A DNA stretch of 64,000 nt from Myxococcales bacterium. GTDB lineage: Bacteria > Lernaellota > Lernaellaia > Lernaellales > Lernaellaceae. A program made the position numbers and the translations under genes. The notes below the pieces were generated by a model. It saw nothing but the letters and a program-made list of their open reading frames with translations. It did not search any database and was not told the origin of the DNA. Each line of letters begins with the position of its first letter. Positions within the stretch are counted from its first letter, which is position 1. The stretch is taken from the NCBI GenBank assembly GCA_012517325.1, contig JAAYVF010000107.1, positions 3,032 through 67,031 of the forward strand, written 5' to 3'. Below, piece after piece: positions 3,357 to 51,691 of the stretch.

Positions 3357-3830
3357 GTGAAACGCGAAACGACGATCTGGTTGCTGTTGACGGTGGCGGC
3401 GATGGCCGGCGGCATCGTGCTGGCCTGCGCCGGCGACACGGGAGGCAAGGAAGGGCCGGTCTATTGCCTGCTGCCCCTGCAAGCCTGGATGGACGAATGC
3501 GGCTTCTCGGTGAAAATGGACGGCGTCAACGAGATGACCCTCGATGAGGCCTACGATTCCTGCAAACACGGCTACGGCAAGGTCTGGCAATACTTCCTGC
3601 ACTGCTACCACGAGGTCTTCCTGAAAGAGGGGCGGGATTGCGAAGCGTTCGCCGAATGCGCCCCCGATCACGGGTTGCCGACCGATGACGACACGGCCGA
3701 CGACGATTCCTCGCCGGTCGACGACGACACCACACCGGTTGACGACGACACCACGCCGGCCGACGACGACACGACGCCGGCCGATGACGACACCACGCCG
3801 GCCGACGACGACACTTCTCCGACCGATTGA
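3357..3830 (+). CDS. small lipoprotein with C-terminal (DDDTTPA)n acidic Thr-Pro repeat tail
   Basis: A GTG start with GAGGA 9 nt upstream opens MKRETTIWLLLTVAAMAGGIVLAC, where LAC fits a lipobox. A Cys-containing ~90-aa domain is followed by DDDSSPVDDDTTPVDDDTTPADDDTTPADDDTTPADDDTSPTD. Confidence 0.6.
   Translation: MKRETTIWLLLTVAAMAGGIVLACAGDTGGKEGPVYCLLPLQAWMDECGFSVKMDGVNEMTLDEAYDSCKHGYGKVWQYFLHCYHEVFLKEGRDCEAFAECAPDHGLPTDDDTADDDSSPVDDDTTPVDDDTTPADDDTTPADDDTTPADDDTSPTD
3692..3827 (+). repeat. tandem ~24-nt coding repeats (gacgacgacaccacgccggccgac, ~4-5 copies) encoding DDDTTPA units
   Basis: Direct reading of 3683-3827: near-identical 24-nt units repeated in frame inside CDS 3357..3830. 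Confidence 0.7.
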
Positions 3831-3900
3831 AGATCAGCCGCCCCGAGCGGTAGACTGCCGGTGATCGTCGAACTGACGGCAACCTCGGCAAGGAGCGGGA

Positions 3901-5571
3901 TTGTTGTACGCGAGCGGGACGGAAACCGACGTTCCACGAAAAGCGATTTACCTCGCGGCGCTGGCGGTTTTCGCCGCCGCGTTCCTGATTTATCTCCCCA
4001 AACTGGCTAATCCGTTCACTTTTGACGATCGCTTGTTCATCCAGACCGATCCGAATCTGCGCGACTGGTCGGCCGCGCTGGGCGAGTTCGGGCGCGATCA
4101 GGCATCGCTGTACCGGCCCCTCCGATCGTTGGTTCTGGCCGGGCTGATTCGTCTGTCCGGCGTGGAAAACCCGGTTCCGTTCCATTTGACCGGCATGCTG
4201 TTGCACGCGGTCGTTTCGGCGTGCGTCGTGTTGATTGTCTGGTTGCTGACCGGGCGGCTCGCGGCCGCGCTGCTGGCCGGTTTGTTGTTCGCCTGGCATC
4301 CCGTTCATTCGGACCGCGTCGCCTTCATCACCGCCGGATTCGATCTGCTGGGCCCGGCCTTCGGCTACGCGGCCTGGGCGCTGGCGTTGGCGTACGACCG
4401 CGGCGGCCGCCGCATTCACCTGTGGGCGACCGGCCTGCTGCTGGCGATCGGCTGTTTCGGCGGCGAGGAAGCGGTGATGACCTGGCCGCTGGTCGGCGGC
4501 AGCCTGTTCTTGTTCCGGGGCGACCGCCGCCGGCGGATCGTCTTGCTCGCGGTGCTTGGCGCGGCCGTGGTTTTTTATCTGGCGGCGCGCACGATGGTGC
4601 TGGGCAGCATCGGCCGGACGCCTGATTATGCCGCAGGTAGTCTTGGCAACTCCGTTTTGTCGATGGCGGTGATTTTCTGGCGGTACATCGGGTTGACGTT
4701 CTGGCCGATCGGTCTCTCGCCGGCTTACGGGCCGACAGTTTATACGCACCTGAATTTGGCTTCGCTGGCGGGTCTGCTCGGCATCGCCGGTTTGCCGGTC
4801 CTGGCGATTGTCGGCCGCAAGCGGTCGCCGGGGCTGGCGCTGGGGATCGGTTGGTTTTTAATCGCGCTGTTTCCGTACAGCAATCTTTTGCCCGCCGATA
4901 CTTTGATGGACGAGCGATACCTCTATTCGGCGCTGGGCGGTTTCGCCGCGGCTGCCGGTCTGGCGCTGGCCTGGATGGGCGGCCAAAGAAAAGGCGCGTG
5001 GCTGGTTGTCGCCTGCCTGCTGGCGGTTTACGGCGCGAATACGGTTGCTCGCTGCCGGGTCTGGGAGCGGCCGTTGACCTTATGGACCCAGGCGGTGACG
5101 CGCGAGCCGAACAGCTTTCTGGCGAACCTCAACGCGGCTTATCATCTGCTGGCGGCGGGGGAAACGGCGGCCGGCGAGCGCTACGCCAGGCGCGCCCATG
5201 AGTTGAACCCGCGCCGCACCGAGCCGCTGTTGCAATTGGCCGATCCGGCGTTTGCCCGCGGCGACGACGCGGCCGGCGTGAATTTGCTGGAACAAGCCGT
5301 CGCCGCCGAGCCGCAATCCGTCGCGGCGCTGAGCGCGCTGGCGCAAGCCTATGTTAAAACCGGACGATTGCCCGAGGCGGCGCGCCTGGCCGAGCAGGCG
5401 CTCGCCGGCGACCGCCGCGATACCCGGGCGCATTACGTGTTGGCCTACCTGGCGGTGACGGCCGGGCGGTGCGACCTGGCGGCCCCGCATTGGCAGGCGG
5501 TTCTTTCCGCCGTTCCGCAAGCGCGGGAATACGAGGCGGCTCGGCAATTGCAGGAGCATTGTTCGCCGTGA
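3901..5571 (+). CDS. TPR-repeat membrane glycosyltransferase, GT-C fold (TMTC/PMT-like, DUF1736 motif)
   Basis: A TTG start with AAGGAG 7 nt upstream opens a multi-TM N-terminal half carrying the PFTFDDRLFIQTD motif (the same FxFDD motif appears in the paralog at 6676..9042) and a C-terminal TPR-like Ala/Leu-rich half. Family assignment is from motif memory. Confidence 0.65.
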   Translation: MLYASGTETDVPRKAIYLAALAVFAAAFLIYLPKLANPFTFDDRLFIQTDPNLRDWSAALGEFGRDQASLYRPLRSLVLAGLIRLSGVENPVPFHLTGMLLHAVVSACVVLIVWLLTGRLAAALLAGLLFAWHPVHSDRVAFITAGFDLLGPAFGYAAWALALAYDRGGRRIHLWATGLLLAIGCFGGEEAVMTWPLVGGSLFLFRGDRRRRIVLLAVLGAAVVFYLAARTMVLGSIGRTPDYAAGSLGNSVLSMAVIFWRYIGLTFWPIGLSPAYGPTVYTHLNLASLAGLLGIAGLPVLAIVGRKRSPGLALGIGWFLIALFPYSNLLPADTLMDERYLYSALGGFAAAAGLALAWMGGQRKGAWLVVACLLAVYGANTVARCRVWERPLTLWTQAVTREPNSFLANLNAAYHLLAAGETAAGERYARRAHELNPRRTEPLLQLADPAFARGDDAAGVNLLEQAVAAEPQSVAALSALAQAYVKTGRLPEAARLAEQALAGDRRDTRAHYVLAYLAVTAGRCDLAAPHWQAVLSAVPQAREYEAARQLQEHCSP

Positions 5572-5723
5572 AGTGACCTGACAGTTCTTGGATCGCTCTC
5601 GAGTAAAACAGAAGGTGATCTCTCCGCACGAATGCGCTCAGCCGCGATAACGGGGTAAAAACCGGTTTGCCGGCGTTGAAGATTTGATCTTCGCGTTTTC
5701 AGAACGGGCTATTTACGCGGGCA

Positions 5724-5757
5724 TTAAAAAGAAAACCCCGTGGTTGCCCACGGGGTT
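5724..5757 (-). terminator. Rho-independent terminator for the minus-strand gene 5781..6380
   Basis: The plus strand shows aaccccgtgg-ttgc-ccacggggtt preceded by ttaaaaagaaaa. On the minus transcript this gives a 10-bp GC stem followed by UUUUCUUUUU. Confidence 0.75.
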
Positions 5758-5780
5758 CTCAGCGTCTTTGCTACACGAAA

Positions 5781-6380
5781 CTAGCAGCCGCAGCCGCCGG
5801 AATCGTTGTCATCATCATCATCATCGCCAACCGTGTCGTCGTCCGGCGGGGTGACGTCGTCGTCAGTACCACCGAAGTACCAGACACCAGACACAAACGT
5901 GGCGCCAGCGTCGTCGCCGGTCAGCAACCAGGCGAAGCCGTCGGTAGCCGCATCGTCAGTCGTCGCCATGAACGAGAAGGTCAGCATGTCGCCTTCCGCG
6001 ATATCGCCGATTTCAGCCGACGACATGGCGCCCGTACCAGACGATTCCCAACTGATCGTGCCGGTGGTCTCGTCGAACTCGACGGTCCATTCCATATCAC
6101 TATGAATGGCATCGGGAGCCGCGTAGGTACCCATCACGTAGTTGGTGTTCGGCAGAGTGATGTCCACCTTTTTAATGGCAACATCGCCACCAGAGGTGTT
6201 GAAAACGTCGAACGCGAATTCATAGTCGGTGCCCGCAACCAGCGCGACCGAAGATTCGCCGTTCGCCGTACCGGTCAGGCCGAAGACTTCCGTAGCGTCA
6301 TCATCTTGGGCCATGACCATCCCCGACATAGCAAAGACAGCAGCCATCATCAAAGCGATCAACAGGAACTTCTTGAACAC
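5781..6380 (-). CDS. secreted protein with C-terminal Asp-rich linker ending in GCGC-COOH
   Basis: I prefer the GTG at 6378-6380 because AGGAGG lies 6 nt upstream; it gives MFKKFLLIALMMAAVFAMSGMVMA|QDDD, a textbook Sec signal peptide. The C-terminus is ...GGTDDDVTPPDDDTVGDDDDDDNDSGGCGC*. GC content is lower than the flanking DNA. Confidence 0.65.
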   Translation of the reverse strand: MFKKFLLIALMMAAVFAMSGMVMAQDDDATEVFGLTGTANGESSVALVAGTDYEFAFDVFNTSGGDVAIKKVDITLPNTNYVMGTYAAPDAIHSDMEWTVEFDETTGTISWESSGTGAMSSAEIGDIAEGDMLTFSFMATTDDAATDGFAWLLTGDDAGATFVSGVWYFGGTDDDVTPPDDDTVGDDDDDDNDSGGCGC

Positions 6381-6675
6381 GTTATCCCTCCTTTCCTCCA
6401 CTTTCCTCGGTTTTATTCTGACTCATTTCATTTCTGACCAAGGTAAGTGCTTGAACTCCGATGACTGTAGTAGTCATCACCTCCTTCTTGTTAAACTTTT
6501 CATAGCCTGCAAACGTTACCGCTCTCGCCGATACAATAATATCGACGTGATACCGCTTGATTTGTTATCTAACACGGTTTCCCCATTAAAATCAACTAAA
6601 AAAATGAGCCGGTAAGTGCTTGAAATGTGTTTTCAATAGTTAACCGTCTCAGTTGATATTATGACCCTACAGTAA

Positions 6676-9042
6676 TTATTCGTCACCCGCCGCCGGTTGG
6701 CCCTTGTCTTCCTCGCTCAACAAACCGAGATTCTTCATCTCATGGAGGGCACCTTGATGGCGAGGGTTGATTTTCAAGGTTTTTTCAAACCATTCGGCCG
6801 CGGCGACGTTGTTCTTTTCAGACAAATAGGTGAGCCCCATGGCGAACGTCGCCTCGACATCTTCCGGCACATCTTGCAGTAAACCCTGCAAAATACGGCG
6901 GGCATTTTGAGGCTGAGTATCAATATTGACCGTGGCCAGAGTCAGGCGCGCCTGGATATGTTTTGGGTCGATGGCCAGGGCGCGGCGGATGTGTGGGCCC
7001 GCTTCGGGCAGCTTGCCGGTCTGGGCCAGGATCAACCCGAGATAAGCATGGGCGTCGGCGTTCTTTTCCTTTTCCGCCAGAATTTCGTTCAGGATGGCGA
7101 TGGCTTCGTCGGTCTTGCCCTGCCGATAACGGATTTGCGACAGGTTGAGCCGGGCCTTGATGTAGCGCGGTTTTTCCCGCAACGCCTGCGTCAGATAGAT
7201 TTCGGCTTTCGCCAGATTGCCGAGCCGCAGGTAGTTGTAGCCGAGGTGATTGAGCAGGCTGGCGGAATGCGGGGTCAGGTTGAGCGCCGCGAAATAGGCT
7301 TTGTTGGCCAGTTCCCAGGCTTGTTCCTGCTGATAGCACAAACCCATTTTCACGAACGCCGCCCGGTTGTCGCGGTAGATGACCAGGCTGCGTTGATAGT
7401 ATTCGAGGGCGGATTTGCAATCGCCCATGGCGCGATAGATTTCGCCGTAATTGTACAGCACGGCGCTGTTGTGCAGGCGGGTCCGGCTGGCGAGCTTCAT
7501 CAATTGCAGGGCTTCGTCGAATCGGCGCTGCTCGGCGTAGATGCCGGCCAGGTCGTTGTAGATCCAGGCCGGTTCCTCGCGGTCGCGCGGGGCGATGTAT
7601 TCCAAGGCTTTGTTGAGGATCTTTTCCGCCTCGGCGTATTTCTTGTTCATGCGATAGATGTTGCCCAGCACCACGTAAAGCAAGGTAGCGTTGGGGGCGT
7701 CGGCGATCATCTGGGTGAAGAGCCGCTCGTTCGAGTACCAATCGACGTTGCGGTCGATCGTCAGCGCGGTGAAGGAGCCGAACATGGCGACGGTCACCAC
7801 TCCGGCCGCTAGGCGGCGCGCCTTGGAAACGGGCCATTCGCAATCCGCCAGCAGTCCGCCCAACCGCCCGATCAACCGCCCCAACACGATCGCGCCGACC
7901 AGGATGAACGGGGCGCTCGGGATATAGAGGAACCGCTCGGCGGTCATGAATCCCATGTCTTTGGGACCGCTGATGCGGATGAAGTTCGAGATCGGCAGCA
8001 GGGACGCCAGGTAGAACAGCAGCGAGAAGCTGATCAGCTTGTCGCGGGTGAAGGTCACGATGATCGTGGCGATCAACAGCGCCAGGAAAACGAAGCCGGC
8101 CAGAAAAGCCGGGTCGAGTACCGATTCGACCAGCGGATTCTGCAGGTAGGCCGACAGGTGAACCGGCACCAGCATTTTCAGCGAGTAGTAGCCGATCGTT
8201 TTGATGAAGCTGAGAATCGCCGTGATCGTGTCGAACGGATCTTTGGCCTGCTTGCTGAACCCGACCTGGAAATAGCGGAACAGGAAATAGCCGACCACCA
8301 TGCCGATCTGAATGGCGAGGATCGGCAGAAAGCGGACGAGCCGCTTCATTTTTTTAATACCGGTCACGTAAACGAACAGGTAGGCCGCGCTCACCACCGG
8401 CAGCGAAACGGCCATTTCTTTCGCCAGCAAGCTGAAGGCGAAAAGCACCAGCGAAACCGCCCCGGGAAGGTAGGGAGACCGCCGGGCGGCGTGCGGCGCC
8501 GCGCCGGGCAACGGATCGAGGTTCTGCCCGGCGGCGAGCCGTTCGGTGTAAACCTGAAACGCTAGGAAGCTGGCGAAATAGAAGAGGGCGCAGAGCGGAT
8601 CGGTCCGGCCGGCGATCCAGGTGACCGATTCGGTATGGATCGGGTGCACCGCGAACAACAAGGCGGCGATGGTCGGCGCCAGCAGGCGGCGATTGGCCAG
8701 GCGATAAAAGATCAGAAAGAGGATCACCGTGCTCAGGTAATGGATCAGCAGGTTGGTCCAATGATACCCGGCGGGGTCGGTTTGCCAGAAACGCCAATCG
8801 AGGGCGTAGGTGATCGTGACCAACGGCCGGTAATAGCCGTATTTGCGGTTGTCGTCGGAAAAACCGAAGAAATCGCGCGCAAAGATGTCTTTTAAGAAAT
8901 TCCAGCTTTTGATCTGGTAATCGAGCACGATCAGATTGATGTCGTCCCAGATGAAATCGCCCTTCGGCGCATTCCAATAGGCGGCATAAACGCAACCGGC
9001 CAGCACGATTGCGATCAGAAGCAAGGCAATTTTCGTTTTCAT
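6676..9042 (-). CDS. TPR-repeat membrane glycosyltransferase, GT-C fold (TMTC/PMT-like, DUF1736 motif), paralog of 3901..5571
   Basis: The start MKTKIALLLIAIVLAG (rc cat 9040-9042) is followed by DFIWDDINLIV, which parallels FTFDDRLFIQ in the paralog. The protein is multi-TM and its C-terminal ~350 aa are clear TPR repeats (YAEAEKILNKALEY..., AYFAALNLTPH...). Confidence 0.7.
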   Translation of the reverse strand: MKTKIALLLIAIVLAGCVYAAYWNAPKGDFIWDDINLIVLDYQIKSWNFLKDIFARDFFGFSDDNRKYGYYRPLVTITYALDWRFWQTDPAGYHWTNLLIHYLSTVILFLIFYRLANRRLLAPTIAALLFAVHPIHTESVTWIAGRTDPLCALFYFASFLAFQVYTERLAAGQNLDPLPGAAPHAARRSPYLPGAVSLVLFAFSLLAKEMAVSLPVVSAAYLFVYVTGIKKMKRLVRFLPILAIQIGMVVGYFLFRYFQVGFSKQAKDPFDTITAILSFIKTIGYYSLKMLVPVHLSAYLQNPLVESVLDPAFLAGFVFLALLIATIIVTFTRDKLISFSLLFYLASLLPISNFIRISGPKDMGFMTAERFLYIPSAPFILVGAIVLGRLIGRLGGLLADCEWPVSKARRLAAGVVTVAMFGSFTALTIDRNVDWYSNERLFTQMIADAPNATLLYVVLGNIYRMNKKYAEAEKILNKALEYIAPRDREEPAWIYNDLAGIYAEQRRFDEALQLMKLASRTRLHNSAVLYNYGEIYRAMGDCKSALEYYQRSLVIYRDNRAAFVKMGLCYQQEQAWELANKAYFAALNLTPHSASLLNHLGYNYLRLGNLAKAEIYLTQALREKPRYIKARLNLSQIRYRQGKTDEAIAILNEILAEKEKNADAHAYLGLILAQTGKLPEAGPHIRRALAIDPKHIQARLTLATVNIDTQPQNARRILQGLLQDVPEDVEATFAMGLTYLSEKNNVAAAEWFEKTLKINPRHQGALHEMKNLGLLSEEDKGQPAAGDE

Positions 9043-9186: not shown

Positions 9187-9849
9187 ATGAAAAATCACCG
9201 CTACCCAAGGCTGTTTTATTCGGTTTTATTGTTGCTCCTCGCGCTGGCGAGCCCGCAATGCGGCGATCCGGAACAGACGACCGCGGCTGGCGGCACGACG
9301 CAAGCCAGTCTCGACGCCGACGGCGACGGCAAAATCGACGGCGTTCCCGACGGCGTCGCCGATTGGTTCACGGTGCAGGAATTGGTGACGCTCGCCAACG
9401 CCGGCCTGCCGATCTACACCGGCGAAAATCCGCCGGCGATCGACGGCGTCTATCTCGCCGACACCTTGCGGATCGTCTTCGACTCCCTCGGCGCGTCCGG
9501 CGATCTGGCGGTTTATCGGTTCACCTTCGCCGACCAGCAATCCGACGGGTCACTCGTGTTGTCTTACGAAAGCGAGGGCGTGGATTCCTCCGCCGGCAAT
9601 CCCGCCTGGATCGCCGGCGAAGGCGACTGTTTTTCGGTGTTCACCAACATCGAAGGCTATCAGGAAGAGGACGATTGCACCTACCAGCGGCCGACGGTCT
9701 ATTCCGCCTGTCTGAACGGCGAAGGCGACCTGACCGGCTTTTTCTTCGGCTTCATCATGAAAGGGCTGTCGGGCGATTGTTCCGCCACGATGCCGGAGGG
9801 CGGCTACCGGGTCATCGGCGAGAACGACGGTCTCGTCGCCCGGCAGTGA
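9187..9849 (+). CDS. secreted hypothetical protein
   Basis: The 220-aa ORF opens with a signal peptide (MKNHRYPRLFYSVLLLLLALASPQCGD). It has no recognisable domain but contains a DADGDGKIDGVPDG stretch that may bind Ca2+. Confidence 0.5.
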   Translation: MKNHRYPRLFYSVLLLLLALASPQCGDPEQTTAAGGTTQASLDADGDGKIDGVPDGVADWFTVQELVTLANAGLPIYTGENPPAIDGVYLADTLRIVFDSLGASGDLAVYRFTFADQQSDGSLVLSYESEGVDSSAGNPAWIAGEGDCFSVFTNIEGYQEEDDCTYQRPTVYSACLNGEGDLTGFFFGFIMKGLSGDCSATMPEGGYRVIGENDGLVARQ

Positions 9850-9870
9850 TTTTTCCGGGCGGGCCGGCGA

Positions 9871-10626
9871 ATGGATGCATCATTGACGGAATGCGGTTTC
9901 ACCCTGGACGAGCGGTTGGCGGCCGCCTTGCGGGGCAATGACGCGGCGCGCTTCCTGGCGACGCGCGATCGCGACGGCCGGCCTTACCTGGTGCCGGCGC
10001 TTTCGGCGCAAAGCGCGGAAGGCGGCCTCATTCGGTTCGCGGCGATTTTTCCGGCGGCGGTGGAGCGCAATTTGGCGCTCGGCGGCTCGCTGGCCTTGCT
10101 GGTCGTCGATGAAAAGCTGCGCTGGTGGTCGCTGGCGGGGCGGCTGGAGGGATTCGCGGACGGCGCCGCCGGTGAGGCGGTACGGCGGTGGGGCCGGCTG
10201 CGGCCGACGGGGTTGCTGGCCCGCGGCGAGCCTTCGACCTGGGGTCTGGTCGCCGAGTATTCGCTGCTTCGGCTTTTCGGCATTCCCCGCGGCGACGGGT
10301 ATGCCGACACCCTGCCGCGCGAGGTGGCGCTCCGCCTGCAGACGCTGCAAAACGTCAAGGGCATCGCCTTCGTCGACGCGGAGAACCGATTGATCGCGCT
10401 GCCCTGCCAGAGCCTGCGTCCGGCCGGACCCGGGGCGGTGGTCTGCGGTACCTGGCTGGTCCCGGAATTGCGCCGCGTTCCTCCCCTGGCGCGCGTGGCG
10501 ATTTGTGTCTTGACGTTCGAACCGAATGCCTATCAAATTCACGGCTGTTTCGAGGGGATCGGCGGCGGGCTGTTGCGGACCGCCGCGACGATCCGCGTGA
10601 GCGGCTTGCAACCGGCGCTGGCCTGA
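9871..10626 (+). CDS. hypothetical protein (possibly PNPOx-like split-barrel; weak)
   Basis: A 251-aa ORF with coding-like composition in the gap between neighbouring genes. No confident motif. Confidence 0.45.
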   Translation: MDASLTECGFTLDERLAAALRGNDAARFLATRDRDGRPYLVPALSAQSAEGGLIRFAAIFPAAVERNLALGGSLALLVVDEKLRWWSLAGRLEGFADGAAGEAVRRWGRLRPTGLLARGEPSTWGLVAEYSLLRLFGIPRGDGYADTLPREVALRLQTLQNVKGIAFVDAENRLIALPCQSLRPAGPGAVVCGTWLVPELRRVPPLARVAICVLTFEPNAYQIHGCFEGIGGGLLRTAATIRVSGLQPALA

Positions 10627-10650
10627 GGCCCGCGCCGCACGGATCGGAAA

Positions 10651-13035
10651 ATGCCGAGTTACGATATCCAAAAAGCGGCGCGCCTGCTCGAGTGGGATCG
10701 CGTCACCGATCGGCTGGCCGAGTTCGCCGACAGCGAGCCGGGCCGCCGCCGGTGCCGGGAACTGCCGTTCCTCGACGATCCCGACCGCATCGACGAGGCG
10801 CTGGCCGACGTCGGCGAGGCGCGCGGGCTGCTCGAACGGGGCATCGCGGTCAATTTCGGCGCGGTGGTCGACCTGGGCGCGATGGCCAAGCGGGCGCGCG
10901 TCGGCAGCGCGTTGACGGGCAGCGACCTGCTGGTGCTGGCCGAGCTGCTGCGCCTGAGCCGGCGCACCAAAAAGCTGTTCGAAACCGAGGCCATCCGCCT
11001 GCCGCGCCTGTCGCAGCGGGCCAACGTGCTGCTCGAACAGGTCGCGCTCGAGAAGGAAATATTCGCGCGGATCGAACGCGACGGCCGCGTCGCCGACAAC
11101 GCCAGCCCCGAGCTGGCGCAACTGCGCGACCGTTACCGCGCGGTGCACACCCAGATTCACGCGGTGCTGGAAAAAATCATCGCCGCCCCCGAATACGAGG
11201 AGTTGCTGCAGGAAAAGCTGTTTTCGCTGCGCAACGGGCGCTTCGTCGTGCCGGTGCGCGTCGAGCGCCGCCACGCGGTGGACGGCATCGTCCACGACAT
11301 CAGTCAGACCGGTCAGTCGCTGTTCATCGAACCGCGGCCGATCACCGAACTCAACAACCGCCTGCGAACCGCCGAACTGGAAATCGAACGCGAGATTTAC
11401 CGCATTTTGCTAGAGCTGACCTACAAGGTCGGCGCGGTCATCGACGAGATCGAAACGGCGGTCGAAACGCTGACCGGCCTCGATCTGGTTTTCGCCAAGG
11501 CCCGCTATTCCCTGAAAATCGGCGCCCAACCGGTCGAGGTGTCGCGGAGCGGCGAAATCCACCTGCCGCGCCTGCGCCACCCGCTGCTCATCGAACAACT
11601 GGCCACCGTGATTCCCAACGACCTGCGCCTGGGCGTCGCCGGCACGCTGGTGCTGTCCGGGCCCAACACCGGCGGCAAAACGGTGCTGCTCAAGACCATC
11701 GGCCTGGCGGCGCTGATGCTGCGCGCCGGGCTCCATCTGCCCTGCGGTCCCGACGGCCGCCTGCCGGTTTTCAAGCGGTTGTTCGCGGTCATCGGCGACG
11801 AGCAATCGATAGAGCGCAACCTGTCGAGCTTTTCCAGCCACCTGCTCAACCTGAAAAACATCCTCGACGAGCTGGTGCCGCACAGCCTGGTGCTGATCGA
11901 CGAGATCGGCGAGGGCACCGATCCGACGCAGGGCGTGGCGCTGGCGCGGGCGATTCTGGACGAGTTGCACCAGCACGGCGCGCGGACGATCGTCACCACG
12001 CACTTCGCCGAACTGATGGCCGAGGCGCAAGTCCGCGAGGGCTGGACCAACGCCGCCATGGCCTTCGACGAAGTCGCGATGACGCCGACCTACCACCTGC
12101 TCACCGGCATGCCCGGCCGCAGCAGCGCCTTCGCCATCGCCGAGCGCCTGGGCCTGCCGCGGGCGGTCGTCGCGCGCGCCCGGTCGCTCGCCGCCGGCAC
12201 CGACACGCGGCTGGAGCAGGTCATCCGCCAGTTGGAGGAAGACCGGCAAAAATGGCGGACCCTGAGCGAACAGGCGGAAGAGGCCTGGAACAAGGCCGAG
12301 GCCGAGAAGAAGCGCCAGCAGGATTTGCTGGCGGAATTGCGGACCAAGAAAGACAAGCTGCTGGCGATCGAGCGCGAATCGCTCAAGGCGCAACTGGACG
12401 AGGCGCGCGAGGCGGTGCGGCAGGTCATCAAGGATTTGCAGGCCGGGCCGTCGTTCGCCGAGGCGGAAAGAACCCGCGAGCGGCTCAAGGAAATCGAACG
12501 GGAGCAGGAGCGGATTTTCCCCGCCCGGTCCGAGCCGGTGCCCGCCTTCCTGTTGCCGATCGCGGATTGGAGCGCGGTGCCCGCCGGGTCCGAGGTGGTG
12601 GTGCACAGCCTGGGCGAATCGGCGACCGTGTTGGAGCCGCCCGATGCCCACGGGCGCGTCCGCCTGCAGGTGCGCGACAAACGCCTGACGCTGCCTGCCG
12701 AGCAATGTTACATGAAGCGCGACCTCGTGCCCGAGCCGCCGGAACGCGAACCGGGCGGCGTGTCGGTCGTCGGCGCGGAGCCGGACGAATCGTTGATCCG
12801 CCTGGACCTGCGCGGCCAGACCGCCGACGACGCCCTGCTCGAAACCGAATGTTTCCTGGATCAGGCGATGCGGCTGCGGCTGCCGCAGGTCGCCATCATC
12901 CACGGCCACGGCACCGGCGTGCTCAAGCGAACCATCCGGGAGTATCTGCGTCGTTGTCCGTACGCCCGTTCCTGGCGCCCCGGCGAACGCGGCGAGGGCA
13001 GCGACGGCGTGACGATGGTCGAGTTGGATCTTTAA
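10651..13035 (+). CDS. mutS2: endonuclease MutS2 (MutS ATPase core plus C-terminal Smr domain)
   Basis: 794 aa with a Walker A motif (GPNTGGKT) and DEIGEGTDP, a long coiled-coil region, and a C-terminal Smr-like block (LDLRGQTADDAL...IIHGHGTGVLK). Confidence 0.9.
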   Translation: MPSYDIQKAARLLEWDRVTDRLAEFADSEPGRRRCRELPFLDDPDRIDEALADVGEARGLLERGIAVNFGAVVDLGAMAKRARVGSALTGSDLLVLAELLRLSRRTKKLFETEAIRLPRLSQRANVLLEQVALEKEIFARIERDGRVADNASPELAQLRDRYRAVHTQIHAVLEKIIAAPEYEELLQEKLFSLRNGRFVVPVRVERRHAVDGIVHDISQTGQSLFIEPRPITELNNRLRTAELEIEREIYRILLELTYKVGAVIDEIETAVETLTGLDLVFAKARYSLKIGAQPVEVSRSGEIHLPRLRHPLLIEQLATVIPNDLRLGVAGTLVLSGPNTGGKTVLLKTIGLAALMLRAGLHLPCGPDGRLPVFKRLFAVIGDEQSIERNLSSFSSHLLNLKNILDELVPHSLVLIDEIGEGTDPTQGVALARAILDELHQHGARTIVTTHFAELMAEAQVREGWTNAAMAFDEVAMTPTYHLLTGMPGRSSAFAIAERLGLPRAVVARARSLAAGTDTRLEQVIRQLEEDRQKWRTLSEQAEEAWNKAEAEKKRQQDLLAELRTKKDKLLAIERESLKAQLDEAREAVRQVIKDLQAGPSFAEAERTRERLKEIEREQERIFPARSEPVPAFLLPIADWSAVPAGSEVVVHSLGESATVLEPPDAHGRVRLQVRDKRLTLPAEQCYMKRDLVPEPPEREPGGVSVVGAEPDESLIRLDLRGQTADDALLETECFLDQAMRLRLPQVAIIHGHGTGVLKRTIREYLRRCPYARSWRPGERGEGSDGVTMVELDL

Positions 13036-14922
13036 CTACTCGATGTCCGTGGCGACGTAATCGCGGAACCGCCCCGTTTTTTCCAACAACATTTCAGTAA
13101 TGCGCCGCAGGCCCTCGTACATCGAGGCCGTGTGTTGCATGTTCCGGCGCAGGGATTCCACCACCGAAAGGCCCTGGTAATCGAAGGCGGTATTCACGAC
13201 GAGCAGTTCCTTGCCGCCGACCGCGGTCAGCAGATCGTCGTGGCGGGCCGCCAGCGTTTTCAGGCGCGCCTCGTCCTTTTCCAGCCGGGCGAGCAACTGG
13301 TCGATTTGCGCCGCCGGCCGGTTCGGGCGGTTGAGCAGGCGGAAGATTTCCGCGGTGCGGGCCAGGCCGTTTTTCGCGCAATGCTGCAATTCGCGCAGGT
13401 CGGCGGCGGTGCCGTCGAGCCGCTCCCGCAACGCCGCGCGATCGATCGGGGCGGGCCGATAGCAGACGTCCAGCCGCTCCTGGACCGGGAATTCCGCGCC
13501 CAGGAATTTTTCCGTGGCGACGGCGAAGGGCAGCGGTTCGGCGTCGCGGATGCGGGCGCCGCCCTCGGTGGCGTTGATGACCCGGACCCCGCGGGCGACG
13601 ATCGCCGGCAGGTGTTTCTCGTACCACAGCAGGTAGTTGTACAGGTTGATTTTGGTGAGCACCCGGCCGCCGTAGTAGCCTTCGACCTGCAGGTATTCGT
13701 CGGCGTCGGGCCCCTGGCCGGCGGCGAGGTTTTGCATGGCGCCGGAATCCAGGCTGAAGTCGCCGATCCGCGAGACGCCGGCGGCGTGGCTCTGGCCCGC
13801 TTCGCCGAACGCCAGATCCTGGCCGACGATGACGATCGGGTTGCAGCCCAGGCGCACGGCGAGCGAAAACGCGGCGATCGACACCGAGCCGCTGAAATCG
13901 AGCACCGCGTCAGGCTGGCCGATGAGGCCGAGCAGCCAGTTCGCGTCGGGCATGTCGTTGCCGAAATAAAAAATCCCCTTGGCCGGAAGATCCCACAGGC
14001 GGCGGTGGCATTTGACGAGCAAAGCCAGATAGGCCCGGGCGGTCTCCGGCGCGTCCGCGAACTGCGGGGTGATGTCGTTGGACTCGACGGCCAGGGTGAG
14101 GTCGGGGATCGCGCCGGCCGCCGTGCATTTGCGCAGCGCCGTGCCGACGCTCAGGATGACGCCGCGGTTTTGCCAGCGCGCCAGGCAGGCGGAATTTTTA
14201 TCGAGGCTCGGCCCGGCCGAGACGACGACCGCCGGCCGGCCCGCCAGGGCGCCGTCGAGCCGGGCGAGCGGCGCGTGCCGCGAATAGGCCGGGAAGTTGT
14301 CGATCAGGTTGTCGAACCACTCGATCTGCCGTTTCAGGTTTGTGGCGGTAATGATTTTTTGGTCCTGCTTCATCGTTTCGATGCGGCGCCGCAAGGGTTC
14401 CAATTGATCGGCGTAGAGTTGCCGGATGGGCGGCAGCAGGTACAGGCCCAGGTTGGGCTGCAGCTTCACGCCGTATTCGAATTGAAAAAACAGCTTGTCC
14501 ACCGCGTCGACCACGGTCAGCCGGTGGTCGGCCAGCGCCGCGGCGCAGTCGACGGCGCCCAGGGCGGCGCGCAGCACCGCCGGTCGCGGTTCGATCACGA
14601 ACACCTTGCCGTTGATTTTTCGCCACAGGCCGAGCGCCAGATAGCCCAGTTCAAAACCCAGCACCAGCACCACGCGGCGGGGCGAGCCGCCGGCCGGCTC
14701 CTGTTCCAGCAAAGCCGCGACGTCGCGCGCCGGCTCGTAACGCGAGAGGATCGAGCGGCCGTCGATCGAGAGCGTCGGTTCGCCGTTGCGGGCGAGGGTG
14801 ACGCTGACCGCCGCGTCGGCGGCCGTCTCGCGCAGGATTTGGGTCAGGCGGCGATCCCGCGTCTCCAAAGCCGCCAGATTTTTTTCCAGCAAGGCCGGGT
14901 CGAACCGTTCGGCGGTCGTCAC
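13036..14922 (-). CDS. DUF115 (Maf / motility-accessory-factor-like, MptE-like fold) glycan-modification protein
   Basis: It carries PAVVVSAGPSLDKN...IPDLTLAVESNDITPQ and ...IVIVGQDLAFG, characteristic of DUF115. I chose the GTG start at 14922, which overlaps the upstream stop as GTGA; the track's longer N-terminus is Arg-rich and overlaps the upstream gene. Confidence 0.6.
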   Translation of the reverse strand: MTTAERFDPALLEKNLAALETRDRRLTQILRETAADAAVSVTLARNGEPTLSIDGRSILSRYEPARDVAALLEQEPAGGSPRRVVLVLGFELGYLALGLWRKINGKVFVIEPRPAVLRAALGAVDCAAALADHRLTVVDAVDKLFFQFEYGVKLQPNLGLYLLPPIRQLYADQLEPLRRRIETMKQDQKIITATNLKRQIEWFDNLIDNFPAYSRHAPLARLDGALAGRPAVVVSAGPSLDKNSACLARWQNRGVILSVGTALRKCTAAGAIPDLTLAVESNDITPQFADAPETARAYLALLVKCHRRLWDLPAKGIFYFGNDMPDANWLLGLIGQPDAVLDFSGSVSIAAFSLAVRLGCNPIVIVGQDLAFGEAGQSHAAGVSRIGDFSLDSGAMQNLAAGQGPDADEYLQVEGYYGGRVLTKINLYNYLLWYEKHLPAIVARGVRVINATEGGARIRDAEPLPFAVATEKFLGAEFPVQERLDVCYRPAPIDRAALRERLDGTAADLRELQHCAKNGLARTAEIFRLLNRPNRPAAQIDQLLARLEKDEARLKTLAARHDDLLTAVGGKELLVVNTAFDYQGLSVVESLRRNMQHTASMYEGLRRITEMLLEKTGRFRDYVATDIE

Positions 14923-16196
14923 GAAAAGCGAACTCCGTTGCGCAGGACGCCCATGACCCACAGGTGATAGGCGCTGGTTTCTTCCTCGCCTTCCCATTGC
15001 ACCTGGTGCAGGCCGAGCAGCACGCCGTCGCCGCCGCGCACCAGGACGGAGCTTTCCTCGAAATCGCCCAGCGCGGGCAACGTTTCGACGATCTCCCCCG
15101 GTTCGCCGGGCCGCGGCGGCAGGTCGTCGCGCAGGTCGGCTTTCCAGATGGTGAGGCGGCGGTCGCGCCAGAAGGTGTAGGCGCCGGAATAGGGCGCGGT
15201 CAAGCCGCGGATCGAATTGTAAATGACCTCGGCCGGCTGCCGCCAATCGAGGCGGTCGTCGGCGTCCTGGCGCAGCGGCCAGCAGGTGGCGCGCGATTCA
15301 TCCTGCGGCCGGCGCGGCAGCGACCGGTTGATCATCCGGGGCAGGGCTTCCTCCATCTGCTCGATTTCCAATTTGAGGATGCGGTTGTAGAGCGAAGCGG
15401 CGTCGTCTTCCCGCGAGACGAAGAAGGACCGCTGGTCGGCCAGGTCGCCGGCATTGGCCTGTTCGGTCAGCCATTGCAGGCTGATGGCGCTTTCGGTCAA
15501 TCCTTTGATCAGCGTCCAGCGCAACGGCGAATGGCCGCGCCCTTCCGGCAGGCGGGTCGGGTACAGGCCGAGCGCGCCGCTTTTCGGCACGGCCAGCAAT
15601 TCCGGGCCGAATTCCTGGTTCCAACCCAGGACGCACAGGTAGTCGGGAGCGGCCGCCCGGATCGCTTCGACGACCTTGGCGTCGTTGATGTCGGCGGTGT
15701 GCAGGAAAGGGATGTCGTTGGCCAGGCAGAGCTTTTTCAGAGGGTCGGCCTCGCGCGATTTCATCCCGGCGGCTTTCCGGCCGATGACCAGCACCGGCGG
15801 CGCCTCGCGTTCGAGCAACTCCGCCAGGAGGCGGCGGGTGTGCTCGAAACCGCCGATGAACACGATGCGCAGGCCGCGCTTGGGCAGTTGCAGGGCGAAG
15901 GGCAGTTCGAGCCCGTCGGCGGCGGCGAAAAAGCCGGCCATTTGCAGGGCGGGCATGGTTTCGGGTCTCGGCCGGCGGGCGACGATCCGCTCGAGTTCCC
16001 AGTGATGCAGCGCCTGGCGGGCGCCGTGCGCGGCCAGCAAGGCGCCGAGTTCCGGGTTCTTGCCGCTGAGCCGGGCGACGCCGCGCTGGTCGACGACGAA
16101 GGCGCCTTCGTCCTCGTTCCACTTGCCGCGCACCGTCAGTCGGTCGTCTTGCCATTCGGTGCAGAGGGTAATATCTGTAAGCAATAAGGGTTTCAT
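14919..16196 (-). CDS. formyltransferase-family protein (Fmt/PurN-like domain with N-terminal extension)
   Basis: It shows the formyl_trans_N-like block LCVLGWNQEFGPELLAVPKSGALGLYPTRLPEGRGHSPLRWTLIKG. It is coupled to the DUF115 gene by a GTGA overlap. Confidence 0.6.
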   Translation of the reverse strand: MKPLLLTDITLCTEWQDDRLTVRGKWNEDEGAFVVDQRGVARLSGKNPELGALLAAHGARQALHHWELERIVARRPRPETMPALQMAGFFAAADGLELPFALQLPKRGLRIVFIGGFEHTRRLLAELLEREAPPVLVIGRKAAGMKSREADPLKKLCLANDIPFLHTADINDAKVVEAIRAAAPDYLCVLGWNQEFGPELLAVPKSGALGLYPTRLPEGRGHSPLRWTLIKGLTESAISLQWLTEQANAGDLADQRSFFVSREDDAASLYNRILKLEIEQMEEALPRMINRSLPRRPQDESRATCWPLRQDADDRLDWRQPAEVIYNSIRGLTAPYSGAYTFWRDRRLTIWKADLRDDLPPRPGEPGEIVETLPALGDFEESSVLVRGGDGVLLGLHQVQWEGEEETSAYHLWVMGVLRNGVRFS

Positions 16197-16318
16197 CGGA
16201 TCGCCGTTCCGCGCCCCGCGGCGCTGAATAATAATGCCGTTGTGACCCTGCGTCGCCGGCTCACGGGCGCCGGCCGGAATGCCACGGATTTTAACGGAAA
16301 TTTGCCTCGGGTGAAACC

Positions 16319-17452
16319 ATGACCAAACCCAAAAAGAAACCGGTGGTGGGCGCGGTGATCCAGGCCCGCCTGGGTTCTTCGCGGCTGCCGGGAAAAGTGC
16401 TGCTGCCGCTGGCCGGCAAGCCGGTCCTGGCGCACGTGGTCGAGCGCTTGCGCCGGTGCCGCCGGCTGGATCGCATCGTCGTGGCGACCAGCACCGCGCC
16501 GGAAGACGCGCGCTTGTTGAAATTGGCCGACGAGCTGGGCGTCGATTCGTTCGCCGGCAGCGAAAACGACGTGCTGGCGCGCTTTCTCGGCGCCGCCGAC
16601 CGCTTCGGCCTGGACATCGTCGTGCGCATCTGCAGCGATTCCCCGCTGCTCGACTGGGTGTTCATCGACGAGATGATCGAGCGCCTCGCGGCGGGCCGCG
16701 CGGATTACTCGATCTGCGACGAGAGTCTGCGCCACGGTTGCGAGGGCTTCGAGACGGTCACGGCGGCCGCCTTGCGCCGGGTCGCCGCGCTCACCGACGA
16801 CGCCGTCAACCACGAGCACGTCACCTGGTACATCCGCCGACATCCGGACGAGTTCCGGATCTGGCATCACCCGGTGCCGCGGGAAATGCGGGGCCCGTAC
16901 CGGATGAGCATGGACGTCGCCGCCGATTACGAATTCATGCGCCGCATCTACGAGGCGCTGTACCGCCCCGGCAACCCCATCGACCTGCGCGCCGCCCTGC
17001 GCTGGCTCAAGCGGCATCCGGAGGTGATGGCCCACAACGCCCACGTTCGGCAAAAACCGGCCGAGGACGCGACCCGGCGGATGTTGTTCATTCTCGGCGG
17101 CGGCATCGCGACCGGCCGGCGCAAAGCGCGCCTCGCCGCCGTGACCGCGCAGTTGGCCGAAAACCACCACGTCGTGCTGACCCTCGCCGCGCCGGCGCCG
17201 CTCGCCGCCCTGGCGGATTTCGGCGCGCGCGGCTACCGGCTGCTGGAACTGCCGGCGAAGTTCCGGCTGACGCGGGCCGTGGTGAGCGAACTGGCGGAGC
17301 GCTGCCGGGCGCGCCTGCTGGTGTACGACGAAGCCCTCCCGGTCGGCGAAAATCTGGTCGCCTGGCTGGCCGGCCAGGGGATCACCGCGCTGCCGCTCGC
17401 GACGCGGATCGACCGGTTGGCGAAACTGGCACGCGCGGCGGCTCAAAAGTGA
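16319..17452 (+). CDS. acylneuraminate/SpsF-type cytidylyltransferase (CMP-sugar synthetase family)
   Basis: The N-terminus VVGAVIQARLGSSRLPGKVLLPLAGKPVLAHVVERL matches the CMP-NeuAc/PseF/SpsF cytidylyltransferase signature. It is transcribed divergently from the formyltransferase gene. Confidence 0.7.
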   Translation: MTKPKKKPVVGAVIQARLGSSRLPGKVLLPLAGKPVLAHVVERLRRCRRLDRIVVATSTAPEDARLLKLADELGVDSFAGSENDVLARFLGAADRFGLDIVVRICSDSPLLDWVFIDEMIERLAAGRADYSICDESLRHGCEGFETVTAAALRRVAALTDDAVNHEHVTWYIRRHPDEFRIWHHPVPREMRGPYRMSMDVAADYEFMRRIYEALYRPGNPIDLRAALRWLKRHPEVMAHNAHVRQKPAEDATRRMLFILGGGIATGRRKARLAAVTAQLAENHHVVLTLAAPAPLAALADFGARGYRLLELPAKFRLTRAVVSELAERCRARLLVYDEALPVGENLVAWLAGQGITALPLATRIDRLAKLARAAAQK

Positions 17453-18201
17453 AATCCGGCGCTGGAATAATAGTGAACGGTCAGCGCCGTCAGTAACGGC
17501 ACCGCCCAGCGGTCGTAGGGTTGCGGCGTGTAGAGTTGGGTGACCGTGGCCACGGCGGTCGCCAGGAGGGCGCCGAAGAAGGACCAGGGCCCGAACCAGA
17601 CGCCGGGTATTTGCGCGAAACCGTAAATCACGGCGAACAGCAGGAGCAGGCTGGCGACGGCCATCCCGGCGATGCCTTCGAAGGTCCGGTTCCGCAACTC
17701 GCGGTCGCGAAACCGCTGGTGGCCCCAATAGCGGCCGACGATCGCCGCCGTCCCCCGCGCCGTCGTCTGGACCAGAACCCCCGAAATCAGAATGAATTGG
17801 TAGCCCGGCCACCAGAACAGCAGTGCCAGGACCAGGGCGGGCCACAGGGTGCCCAGCGGCGGTTCCTCGTTTTCGCCGTCCGCGAGCAGCGGTTTCATCC
17901 AGGGGTGCCGGCGGGCGCGATAATTCACGTACATCAGCAAGAGCGGCGCGAACCACATCGCGGGCCAGAGGGCGATCCAGTAAAAGGCGATGATCACCCA
18001 GCCGCCCGCGACCACCTGCAGGATGCGCCGGGCCAGCCAGGGGGAAATTCGCGACGAACGGCGTAGGAGGCGCGCGCCGGCAAGGGCCGCCAGGCCGTAG
18101 AAAACGCAGAGCATCACGCCGACGGCGTTCCGGGCCGTTCCCGTGGTGGCGAAGAGAATCGCGGTTTTGAGCAAACCGAGCCAACCGGCGTCGGGCGACA
18201 C
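17443..18201 (-). CDS. CTP-transferase-1 family membrane protein (polyprenol/dolichol-kinase-like or CdsA-like)
   Basis: A multi-TM protein with ...GTAAIVGRYWGHQRF... followed by NRTFEGIAGM, which fits the K(T/S)xEG polyprenol-kinase motif. I chose the GTG at 18201 because GGGAGG lies 10 nt upstream; the longer track ORF overlaps the radical SAM gene. Confidence 0.5.
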   Translation of the reverse strand: MSPDAGWLGLLKTAILFATTGTARNAVGVMLCVFYGLAALAGARLLRRSSRISPWLARRILQVVAGGWVIIAFYWIALWPAMWFAPLLLMYVNYRARRHPWMKPLLADGENEEPPLGTLWPALVLALLFWWPGYQFILISGVLVQTTARGTAAIVGRYWGHQRFRDRELRNRTFEGIAGMAVASLLLLFAVIYGFAQIPGVWFGPWSFFGALLATAVATVTQLYTPQPYDRWAVPLLTALTVHYYSSAGFHF

Positions 18202-18248
18202 GAGTCTATTACCTCCCGGCTGCGAATCGATTCTTGGTATACCAGAAA

Positions 18249-30571: not shown

Positions 30572-30747
30572 GGCCTGCCTCCGGAGACAATTTTTAAGGA
30601 ACGGCATCGAGCCGCGGTTTTGAACGCGCGTTCATTATGCGGGATCGATTCAGGGAGTCAACCGAAACGAGGCGACCCGATCGACTCGGTCGGATGAAAA
30701 AGTCGCGCGGATGGGTCGGATTCACTATCCGGAAAAGGGCGGCTAAG

Positions 30748-42538: not shown

Positions 42539-42841
42539 CCGGTGTTGATTAACGAAAAAGTGATGAGTTTTAGAGTGGTGTATTACCCATCTAATCCAGC
42601 CATTCTGTAGATGATTTTGCAATTTGTGGAACCGCTCGCCTCACGAACAACCTACTGATTAACAGAAAAGTAAAAACGATTTTCGAAATTTTTTTTCCGA
42701 ATTTCGGATGTTGTCTTCCGCTCCCAAAGCCTAAGTACTTGAAATCACAATATCGCGCATTTGGCATGTCCAATGCTTCATGTCTCATTATCGCGCATTA
42801 ATTATTGTGATGACAATAATCGTCAGCGAAAAGGATGGTCA

Positions 42842-51572: not shown

Positions 51573-51691
51573 GAAAAAAGCCCCCAAGGGAATTTTCGAA
51601 TCAGTTCGCTCACCCCCGCGCAAAAGCGGTTGATAATAAGGCCATGCATGGGGAAACACCATCGCGGGAATTTGCGTTACAATCCCCGGCC

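Follow-up and report, generated by a model that had tools for sequence, protein, structure and literature searches.

A small lipoprotein with an Asp-Thr/Ser repeat tail is paired with a TMTC-like TPR glycosyltransferase in relatives of Ca. Lernaellota: a candidate dedicated O-glycosylation pair

Here we describe two neighbouring gene pairs in a 64,000-nucleotide stretch of contig JAAYVF010000107.1 (the whole of the DNA analysed, hereafter the window), each of which joins a small exported protein with an acidic segment to a TPR-bearing glycosyltransferase. The first gene of the first pair, at 3357..3830 on the forward strand, has the coordinates and sequence given in the initial annotation of this DNA and translates into a lipoprotein of 157 aa, of the A type within a small, as yet unnamed family. 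As read from the sequence, a signal peptide with a V-L-A-C lipobox (3357..3428, +) ends in Cys24 (codon 3426..3428), which is invariant across 24 homologs, and is followed by a Cys-rich helical domain (3459..3677, +; residues 35-107) that carries six further invariant cysteines and closes on C-x-P-x-H-G-F. The family is new: it is previously undescribed, has no Pfam or NCBIfam model (scans with the 3357 protein gave no match) and has no structural relative, a fold search with the Cys-rich domain having found no match and no detectable similarity to any solved structure. Among 5.8e9 proteins it has 24 members, and a set of 1.84e9 gave 13 representatives; all of its loci come from one narrow lineage, relatives of Ca. 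Lernaellota, and the window protein itself is matched with 100% identity by P0051, annotated as hypothetical in a MAG. The paper that describes Lernaellota says nothing of acidic linkers, lipoproteins or glycosylation (PMC9324843).

The rest of the lipoprotein is an acidic tail (3678..3827, +), predicted to be disordered (pLDDT 53-58), which is built of DDD-(T/S)-(T/S)-P-(A/V) units and reads DDDTADDDSSPVDDDTTPV(DDDTTPA)x3 DDDTSPTD. At the DNA level it is a 21-nt tandem repeat (3694..3814, 5.8 copies, 87% matches). These units had been taken to contain an S/T-Pro sequon, which the family does not bear out: Pro is present in 8 of 24 tails, S/T-Pro is absent from the other 16, and the tail of the Ca. 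Lernaella stagnicola ortholog is almost pure D/N, with 4 Thr in 87 residues. Rather, what recurs is the residue that follows a run of Asp, which is Thr in 64% and Ser in 8% (Thr or Ser together in 72%) of 185 cases across the 24 tails, and the position after it is filled by T/A/S/V/I/L/M in 84%. Judged by sequence, then, the family-wide tail unit is DDD-(T/S)-x and not S/T-Pro. Furthermore, Thr or Ser after the Asp runs is kept in tails with repeat periods of 5, 7 and 8 residues, which suggests that the hydroxy residue is under selection.

Downstream of the lipoprotein gene, after a gap of 70 nt as originally reported, lies a gene at 3901..5571 (+) whose 556-aa product we call GT-C1. An AAGGAG ribosome-binding site can be read from the sequence before it (3890..3895, +), and a scan of the gap from 3830 to 3901 for a terminator-like site found none; the two genes are probably co-transcribed. 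The proposal that this is a TMTC-like, TPR-bearing enzyme of the GT-C fold holds. Its polytopic membrane domain (3901..5070, +; about 390 aa) has the GT-C fold and 11 TM helices with the N-terminus inside, and leads into a TPR domain (5071..5568, +) with Pfam TPR_19 and TPR_14 matches at residues 445-517 and modelled hairpins from 391 to 554. Both the model and the loop charges turn the DD motif and the TPR domain toward the periplasm, in that Arg/Lys residues are plentiful in the short loops on the cytoplasmic side, in a positive-inside pattern, and every conserved motif falls in a periplasmic loop. These motifs are FDD (D42 D43; 4024..4029, +), YRP (4111..4119, +), HPVHSD and ERYLY (4912..4926, +); D42-D43 is invariant among 36 aligned homologs, and YRP, HPxHx(D/E) and ERxxY are conserved. 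The net charge of the TPR domain is about neutral, ranging from -8 to +7 in 14 orthologs, and electrostatics therefore do not suggest poly-Asp binding; we considered the domain as a basic poly-Asp binder and rejected the idea, as it is not consistently basic in these orthologs.

Pfam, including TMTC_DUF1736 (PF08409), gives no match to the membrane domain of GT-C1 or of its paralog at E up to 10; among the 36 aligned homologs, 5 match TMTC_DUF1736 (best E 5.8e-15) and 7 match PMT_2. PMT (PF02366) and MIR match neither of the two window enzymes and do not occur among the families listed for the 36 homologs, and Wzy_C, the O-antigen ligase domain of PglL/PilO-type O-oligosaccharyltransferases, gives no match in the Pfam scans of these window proteins and is not among the 25 listed of the 43 families that these homologs match. 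Searched against PDB sequences, both full-length enzymes retrieve TPR proteins only, and a profile restricted to the membrane domain retrieves no match. Foldseek against the PDB likewise returns mostly TPR matches, and Pmt4 and PglB are the only membrane matches near the top.

The second pair lies on the reverse strand. GT-C2 (6676..9042, -; 788 aa, with a long TPR domain) had been described as a paralog of the first enzyme and proves to be a true one, its membrane domain aligning with that of GT-C1 at 26% identity (E 2e-16). It has the canonical motifs WDD (8941..8946, -), YYRP, HPIHTE, GRTD, AKE and ERFLY. The gene downstream of it (5781..6380, -) encodes an exported protein of 199 aa with a signal peptide, a domain of about 150 aa, the acidic linker TDDDVTPPDDDTVGDDDDDDND and the C-terminus SGGCGC (GGCGC codons at 5784..5798, -); its family is likewise new, with no Pfam or NCBIfam model, and the gene is followed by a strong hairpin terminator (5731..5760, -; 13-bp stem and T run) between the convergent genes of the two pairs. 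A C-terminus of the form (S)GG(G)CGC is found in 48 of 51 homologs, and the small exported proteins paired with GT-C2 end in ...DDDDSGGCGC. We considered and rejected this ending as a known C-terminal sorting signal: in the known Cys-containing signals, MYXO-CTERM among them, the Cys precedes a TM helix, and the GGCGC proteins have none there.

Each pair is preserved well beyond the window. An A-type lipoprotein gene is followed directly by GT-C1 in all 11 loci with downstream sequence, one of which (L035) has unrelated flanks, so the two genes form a conserved unit rather than a local accident; the most distant GT-C1-type homolog, P0015, begins at a contig end, its upstream gene lying beyond the contig. 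At L035, a generic GT2 and a DUF2079 protein are encoded downstream of the GT-C1 ortholog. In the window and at L001, L004, L005, L034, L036 and L037, the gene after GT-C2 encodes a GGCGC protein, and at L036 and L037 the flanks are unrelated; the GT-C2 ortholog at L037, directly upstream of its GGCGC protein, is 40% identical. At L001, five tandem copies of the GGCGC-protein gene stand beside GT-C2, and tandem copies beside a single enzyme look like substrates rather than regulators.

To our knowledge, the characterised TPR-bearing GT-Cs (TMTC1-4 and TfpW) all act on Ser/Thr of proteins, and we know of no bacterial TMTC/PMT-like TPR GT-C apart from TfpW with an assigned acceptor. TfpW, which modifies Ser/Thr in group IV PilA of P. 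aeruginosa, is a GT-C with a DDx motif that combines 11 TM helices with a TPR domain in the periplasm, and its gene lies directly downstream of the gene for its substrate, pilA (bioRxiv 10.1101/2020.04.19.049825). Compared by architecture and gene order alone, it is like GT-C1, with the candidate target gene first and the enzyme gene second (11/11 loci here). It is unlike the window in that its target is a pilin rather than a lipoprotein with a repetitive poly-Asp/Thr tail, in that the window has two paralogous modules, and in its D-Araf genes (DprE1/DprE2, GtrA-like), none of which lies near GT-C1; indeed, no D-arabinofuranose genes of the DprE1/DprE2 type were found in the window.

TMTC1-4 (GT105) are in turn modelled with 11 TM helices, a cytoplasmic N-terminus and a non-cytoplasmic C-terminal TPR domain, and carry the conserved motifs M1-M7: DD, SHKSYRP, RxD, KE(T/Q)xxT, DW, PxxP and ERxxY (PMC7801869). 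GT-C1 shares the 11 TM helices and the C-terminal TPR domain, and of the motifs (M6 being outside the comparison) keeps M1, the loop-1 DD, together with the YRP part of M2 and the ERxxY of M7; within the same scope GT-C2 keeps M1, YRP, M3 (GRTD), M4 (AKE) and M7, with no clear M5. Unlike the TMTCs, GT-C1 lacks the M3 Arg, M4 Lys and M5 Asp: in its orthologs, GRxD becomes GSFD or AGFD, SKE becomes SEE or GEE, and ADY becomes PAY. As the TMTC model gives these three residues a part in ligand binding, GT-C1 could take another donor or be impaired in catalysis. The substrates differ as well, since TMTC1-4 transfer mannose to folded cadherin domains, whereas the candidate acceptors in the window are disordered acidic repeats and the candidate donor is a bacterial polyprenyl phosphate sugar. 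PMT enzymes (GT39) act on extended Ser/Thr-rich segments (PMC12586580); the fungal and actinobacterial PMTs differ from GT-C1 in having a luminal MIR domain in place of TPRs, and the candidate target here is dominated by Asp.

The tail unit itself has a counterpart in the general O-glycosylation of Bacteroidota, which uses the sequon D-(S/T)-(A/I/L/V/M/T) and a glycan believed to be built on a lipid carrier, from which a still unidentified enzyme transfers it (PMC12871550), so that no enzyme comparison with the window GT-Cs is possible. D-(T/S)-(T/A/S/V/I/L) in the tails has the same three-residue form, and exported proteins carry it in both cases; taken as a sequence pattern, all 7 D-(S/T)-x sites in the tail of the window lipoprotein fit the sequon, and so does the majority of those in all 24 tails. 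The two differ in lineage, and the motif is packed into repeats in the window rather than scattered over folded proteins. We know of no other bacterial O-glycosylation sequon, and the form of the DDD-(T/S)-x repeat is that of this one.

On these sequence-based grounds, the initial interpretation of the lipoprotein and GT-C1 as enzyme and substrate is partly supported, and the best reading, which we put forward tentatively, is that GT-C1 is dedicated to O-glycosylation of Thr/Ser in the lipoprotein tail and GT-C2 likewise to that of the GGCGC proteins. GT-C1, an inner-membrane enzyme that turns its catalytic Asp-Asp loop and TPR domain toward the periplasm, would take a single sugar off a polyprenyl-phosphate carrier and move it to the Thr/Ser hydroxyl after each Asp run, and the TPR domain would hold the extended tail in place. 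The product would be a mucin-like, sugar-coated polyanionic tail. GT-C2 would act likewise on the products of the genes downstream of it (5781..6380 in the window), small exported proteins with acidic linkers and a GGCGC end.

A different role for the lipoprotein is suggested by its B-type subfamily, which also has a DDDTx tail. In 6/6 loci with differing flanks, the next gene encodes a protein of 716-746 aa with a monofunctional peptidoglycan transglycosylase (GT51) domain, and one relative (L045) has no neighbouring glycosyltransferase. We know of no protein acceptor of GT51 enzymes, which makes an accessory or regulatory role of the lipoprotein the main and a serious rival, if a somewhat unlikely one. 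The lipoprotein would then be an Lpo-like partner of GT-C1 rather than its substrate, docking on GT-C1 or GT51, according to lineage, via its Cys-rich domain or acidic tail, and GT-C1 itself would act on an envelope component other than protein, such as lipid A/LPS core, peptidoglycan or a further glycan. Indeed, "partner" is the simpler description of a role for the family as a whole. LpoA, LpoB and LpoP, outer-membrane lipoproteins that activate GT51 peptidoglycan synthases, are likewise small and have a long disordered segment, and their GT51 connection is echoed by the B-type relatives; in P. aeruginosa, lpoP adjoins the gene for PBP1b. The loss of three canonical ligand-binding residues from GT-C1 is also consistent with such a role, as is the closeness in fold of ArnT (GT83), a GT-C without a TPR domain that acts on lipid A and is as near as Pmt4, and the organism makes lipid A, since the window has an acyltransferase gene for it (50568..51662). 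Moreover, many TPR domains clamp acidic C-terminal peptides, such as the EEVD of Hsp70/90. However, an Lpo linker runs between the anchor and a globular domain, whereas here the globular domain lies by the anchor, it is the C-terminal, poly-acidic stretch that is disordered, and the window pairs the lipoprotein with a GT-C rather than a GT51; nor does the Cys-rich domain have detectable similarity to LpoA, LpoB or LpoP. A purely accessory role also leaves the fixed Thr/Ser after the Asp runs unexplained, and up to five tandem target-like genes, as at GT-C2, would be unusual for a regulator.

It is improbable that no enzymatic link exists, with the acidic segments serving as unmodified spacers, cation-binding tails or surface-sorting signals, as a habit of the whole lineage, and the adjacency reflecting co-regulation or inherited synteny. 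Tandem DNA repeats can expand without selection on each residue, and the restriction of all loci to one narrow lineage would suit inherited synteny. In addition, six window lipoproteins have C-D-N-(G)-D-D-D-D or a similar run directly after the lipobox Cys, which resembles the lipoprotein export signal of Bacteroidota, C-S-D-D-D-D or K-(D/E)2 (PMC5080379). An N-terminal export signal, however, cannot explain a C-terminal tail, and the pairs outlast complete turnover of their flanks (L035 for the first, L036 and L037 for the second), while Thr/Ser after Asp is kept over different repeat periods.

The initial annotation went further than two pairs and proposed a general periplasmic system that decorates acidic linkers throughout the window. 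All of the Asp-rich-segment proteins in the window (10/10) have signal peptides or lipoboxes, D-(T/S)-x units also turn up in several window linkers and, among relatives, in unrelated proteins such as P0074, and the form of the unit is that of a sequon which, in Bacteroidota, serves a general system (PMC12871550). The motif strings first listed are indeed all in real frames of exported proteins (5781, 27148, 28745, 31660, 34862, 36652 and 49110; in a six-frame search, 2 of 17 matches fall outside called genes), but the S/T-P units are a minor part of these linkers, most of which are (DDN)n or poly-D, with Asn in place of Thr/Ser after Asp and one or two S/T-P units, mostly at the linker ends. 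The support for a general system is one of composition. The tight linkage of each GT-C to a single small protein family argues for dedicated pairs, and two such pairs fit better; modification of other acidic linkers in the genome is less likely than dedicated pairing, and the full version, in which both GT-Cs serve many acidic linkers and the lipoprotein is one substrate among them, we regard as very unlikely, the more so as S/T-Pro is missing from most family tails.

Two further elements had been put forward as a nearby supply of donor, a reading that does not stand up. The supposed sugar-modification cluster at 13036..19298 holds a Maf/PseD-like MptE domain protein, a formyltransferase, a cytidylyltransferase and a radical SAM/SPASM protein; it is of the cytoplasmic Maf/CMP-sugar type, that is, nucleotide-sugar rather than polyprenyl-phosphate chemistry. 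The gene at 17443..18201 (-), first read as a polyprenol kinase, is a genuine gene for a polytopic membrane protein (GC3 0.85) that matches no Pfam, NCBIfam or PDB family. Neither a polyprenyl-phosphate sugar synthase nor a GtrA-type flippase nor a polyprenol kinase was found in a search across the window, which counts against the substrate reading.

For both GT-Cs, the strict pairing with one small protein provides a concrete, clonable candidate acceptor or partner. Should the pairing be regulatory, lipoprotein control of envelope glycan synthases would extend from GT51 to GT-C. A bolder claim would be that relatives of Ca. Lernaellota carry out sequon-directed (Asp-Thr/Ser-x) periplasmic O-glycosylation by TMTC-like TPR GT-Cs, each paralog being wired to its own small-protein family; we consider this unlikely. 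If true, it would give a first function and first substrates to the large, uncharacterised bacterial group of TMTC/PMT_2-like TPR proteins, and would make this enzyme class a candidate for the missing D-(S/T)-x transferase of Bacteroidota. A scan of genome contigs with GT-C1 found one close ortholog (L006), the others being distant TPR GT-Cs of other phyla, among them Verrucomicrobiota, Gemmatimonadota, Chloroflexota and Bacteroidia.

The lipoprotein gene at 3357..3830(+) encodes 157 aa, in which a lipobox (V-L-A-C24) is followed by a Cys-rich segment and then by an acidic tail, DDDTADDDSSPVDDDTTPV(DDDTTPA)x3 DDDTSPTD; the (DDDTTPA)n ending reported in the initial annotation is indeed present in the translation, and the DNA of the tail is a tandem repeat with a 21-nt period and 5.8 copies. 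The family is tiny (24 members among 5.8e9 proteins; 13 representatives among 1.84e9), has no model in Pfam or NCBIfam, and keeps invariant seven Cys, the lipobox Cys included, together with a C-x-P-x-H-G-F end. Its Cys-rich domain is predicted to form four short helices (pLDDT 84-95) and its tail to be disordered. Across the 24 family tails the general unit is DDD-(T/S)-x: of 185 Asp runs, 64% are followed by T and 8% by S, the position after that is T/A/S/V/I/L/M in 84%, and Pro is found in only 8 of the tails. In form, DDD-(T/S)-x matches the sequon D-(S/T)-(A/I/L/V/M/T) used in Bacteroidota, for which a transferase has yet to be found (PMC12871550).

The gap to the next gene measures 70 nt, the spacing originally noted, and contains an AAGGAG site; a terminator scan of it returned no terminator-like site. 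That gene, GT-C1 (3901..5571(+)), encodes 556 aa, the last 165 forming a TPR domain of about neutral charge, and the proposal of a paralog, GT-C2, at 6676..9042(-) is borne out (26% identity, E 2e-16 over the membrane domain). The membrane domains of both matched no Pfam model, and a PDB sequence search with the membrane domain gave no match; among 36 aligned homologs, 5 match TMTC_DUF1736 and 7 match PMT_2. The AF2 model of GT-C1 built on these 36 homologs is confident (pLDDT 93.6), and the predicted topology places 11 TM helices with the N-terminus inside, the TPR outside and short Arg/Lys-rich cytoplasmic loops. The same arrangement of 11 TM helices and an outside TPR is described for TfpW and modelled for TMTC1-4 (PMC7801869).

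In a tblastn census of all fetched loci, counting for A-type lipoproteins (those of the 3357..3830 kind) only loci with downstream sequence, the lipoprotein was followed by GT-C1 in 11/11. GT-C2 has a neighbour of another kind. Between both GT-C genes, 5781..6380(-) encodes an exported protein of 199 aa that has an acidic linker and ends in SGGCGC, and (S)GG(G)CGC-stop is the exact C-terminus in 48 of 51 homologs. These GGCGC proteins (about 200-250 aa, with a signal peptide, a ~150-aa domain and a poly-Asp linker) have no Pfam or NCBIfam model; their end, unlike known Cys-containing C-terminal sorting signals, has no TM helix after the Cys, and possible roles for it include lipidation, metal binding, thiol linkage or S-glycosylation. 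The family always lies beside a GT-C2-type gene: in the window, in Ca. Lernaella stagnicola (L001, 7746..11542(-)), where five GGCGC genes stand in tandem between the two GT-C genes, and in L036 (7001..7654) and L037 (7001..7771), loci with unrelated flanks where a GT-C2 ortholog, 40-47% identical, sits directly upstream. Each of the two paralogs is thus accompanied by a small exported protein of its own, and both pairings are conserved. In L036 the GT-C2 ortholog (4409..6710) is called as two ORFs that overlap, one of 463 aa for the membrane part and one of 310 aa for the TPR part; a frameshift, an error of assembly or a genuine split would account for this.

We tentatively favor, at somewhat short of an even chance, a dedicated enzyme-substrate relation in which each GT-C would modify its own small exported neighbour. 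We count towards this the conserved pairing, the constancy of Thr/Ser within the repeat, the presence of several GGCGC gene copies next to GT-C2, and the order of lipoprotein and GT-C1, which resembles that of TfpW, where the target gene precedes the enzyme gene. To our knowledge, characterised TPR GT-Cs have protein acceptors, which we count likewise. TfpW already exemplifies both the enzyme class and the target-beside-enzyme layout. What is new here is the lineage, the existence of two modules in parallel, the families of the targets and the poly-Asp/Thr repeat. The substrate question is directly open to co-expression and mass spectrometry.

It is possible, if rather unlikely, that the lipoprotein is instead a partner or regulator of the enzyme and that the GT-C1 acceptor is not a protein. 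Pointing this way, B-type lipoproteins, a sister subfamily with the signature HWFDC...CQFAxGNMW and a tail of the same kind, are paired with GT51: in 6/6 loci (L031 8001..10895; L032 8001..10674; L033 8001..10883; L044, L047 and L048) the next gene encodes a 716-746 aa monofunctional peptidoglycan transglycosylase-domain protein. This protein combines a DUF748-like N-terminal region with the GT51 domain and carries no transpeptidase domain. Furthermore, the ligand-binding residues of GT-C1 are altered. Compared against seven TMTC motifs, GT-C1 and GT-C2 share the DD motif, YRP, HPxHx(E/D) and ERxxY, and GT-C2 also keeps GRTD and AKE; in all GT-C1 orthologs, GRxD, SKE and ADY have become GSFD/AGFD, SEE/GEE and PAY, and the replacements are conserved. 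As the TMTC model gives three of the residues replaced here sugar, phosphate or metal binding roles (PMC7801869), GT-C1 constitutes a divergent subfamily and, judging from its sequence, may use a different donor or have impaired activity. The L. stagnicola ortholog also has a Thr-poor tail, almost all D/N, and the fold by itself does not tell a protein acceptor from a lipid acceptor.

That lipoprotein and GT-C share no enzymatic link we consider improbable. No glycosyltransferase adjoins one further lipoprotein relative, whose tail is short; the pair in L035 sits among entirely different flanks, so the pairing is more than inherited synteny. Just downstream of that pair, on the other strand (10289..12894(-)), are a DUF2079 membrane protein and a generic GT2, which could serve donor supply or further glycan building.

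The general system decorating acidic linkers that was initially proposed appears least probable. Every S/T-P string on which it drew is real and belongs to an exported protein, but poly-D or (DDN)n dominates these linkers and S/T-P occurs at the ends. Six lipoproteins (28745..30607(-), 31660..33264(+), 33276..34736(+), 34862..36496(+), 36652..38223(-) and 49110..50420(+)) carry 20-70 residues of poly-Asp or (DDN)n from the lipobox Cys or a few residues on; their starts (C-D-N-D-D-D-D, C-D-N-G-D-D-D-D and similar) resemble the Bacteroidota acidic lipoprotein export signal (PMC5080379) and may need no glycosylation as explanation. Two of the six have weak glycan-related matches, to Glyco_hydro_42 (marginal, sub-threshold) and DUF4185.

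Nor did the 64 kb window yield a polyprenyl-phosphate sugar synthase or flippase. The supposed sugar-modification cluster (13036..19298) does hold nucleotide-sugar genes (Maf/PseD-like MptE (PF01973), ArnA-like formyltransferase, KdsB/PseF-like cytidylyltransferase, radical SAM/SPASM), but their chemistry is cytoplasmic. Distant locus L036 likewise has genes for an MptE-like protein and a formyltransferase (3513..4283 and 9228..10658) no more than a few kb away from its GT-C2/GGCGC pair, which could be coincidence or a link. The putative polyprenol-kinase-like gene, 17443..18201(-), is real (coding-type GC3 0.85) and encodes a polytopic 252-aa membrane protein, but matches no family in Pfam, NCBIfam or PDB; its string AAIVGRYWGHQRF...RNRTFEGIAGM resembles, by eye, a CdsA/dolichol-kinase motif.

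The contig shows 100% identity to P0001, a MAG contig of 102 kb labelled Myxococcales. For all three gene families examined, the closest named relative is Ca. Lernaella stagnicola (candidate phylum Lernaellota), and the public NCBI label 'Myxococcales bacterium' (P0001, P0051) is probably wrong. Two low-GC islands, 24056..25366 (GC3 0.40; an ORF of no family) and 42761..44215 (GC3 0.52; a weak MotA/ExbB match), have a local GC of 0.47-0.50 in a window of about 62% GC and may both have been horizontally acquired.
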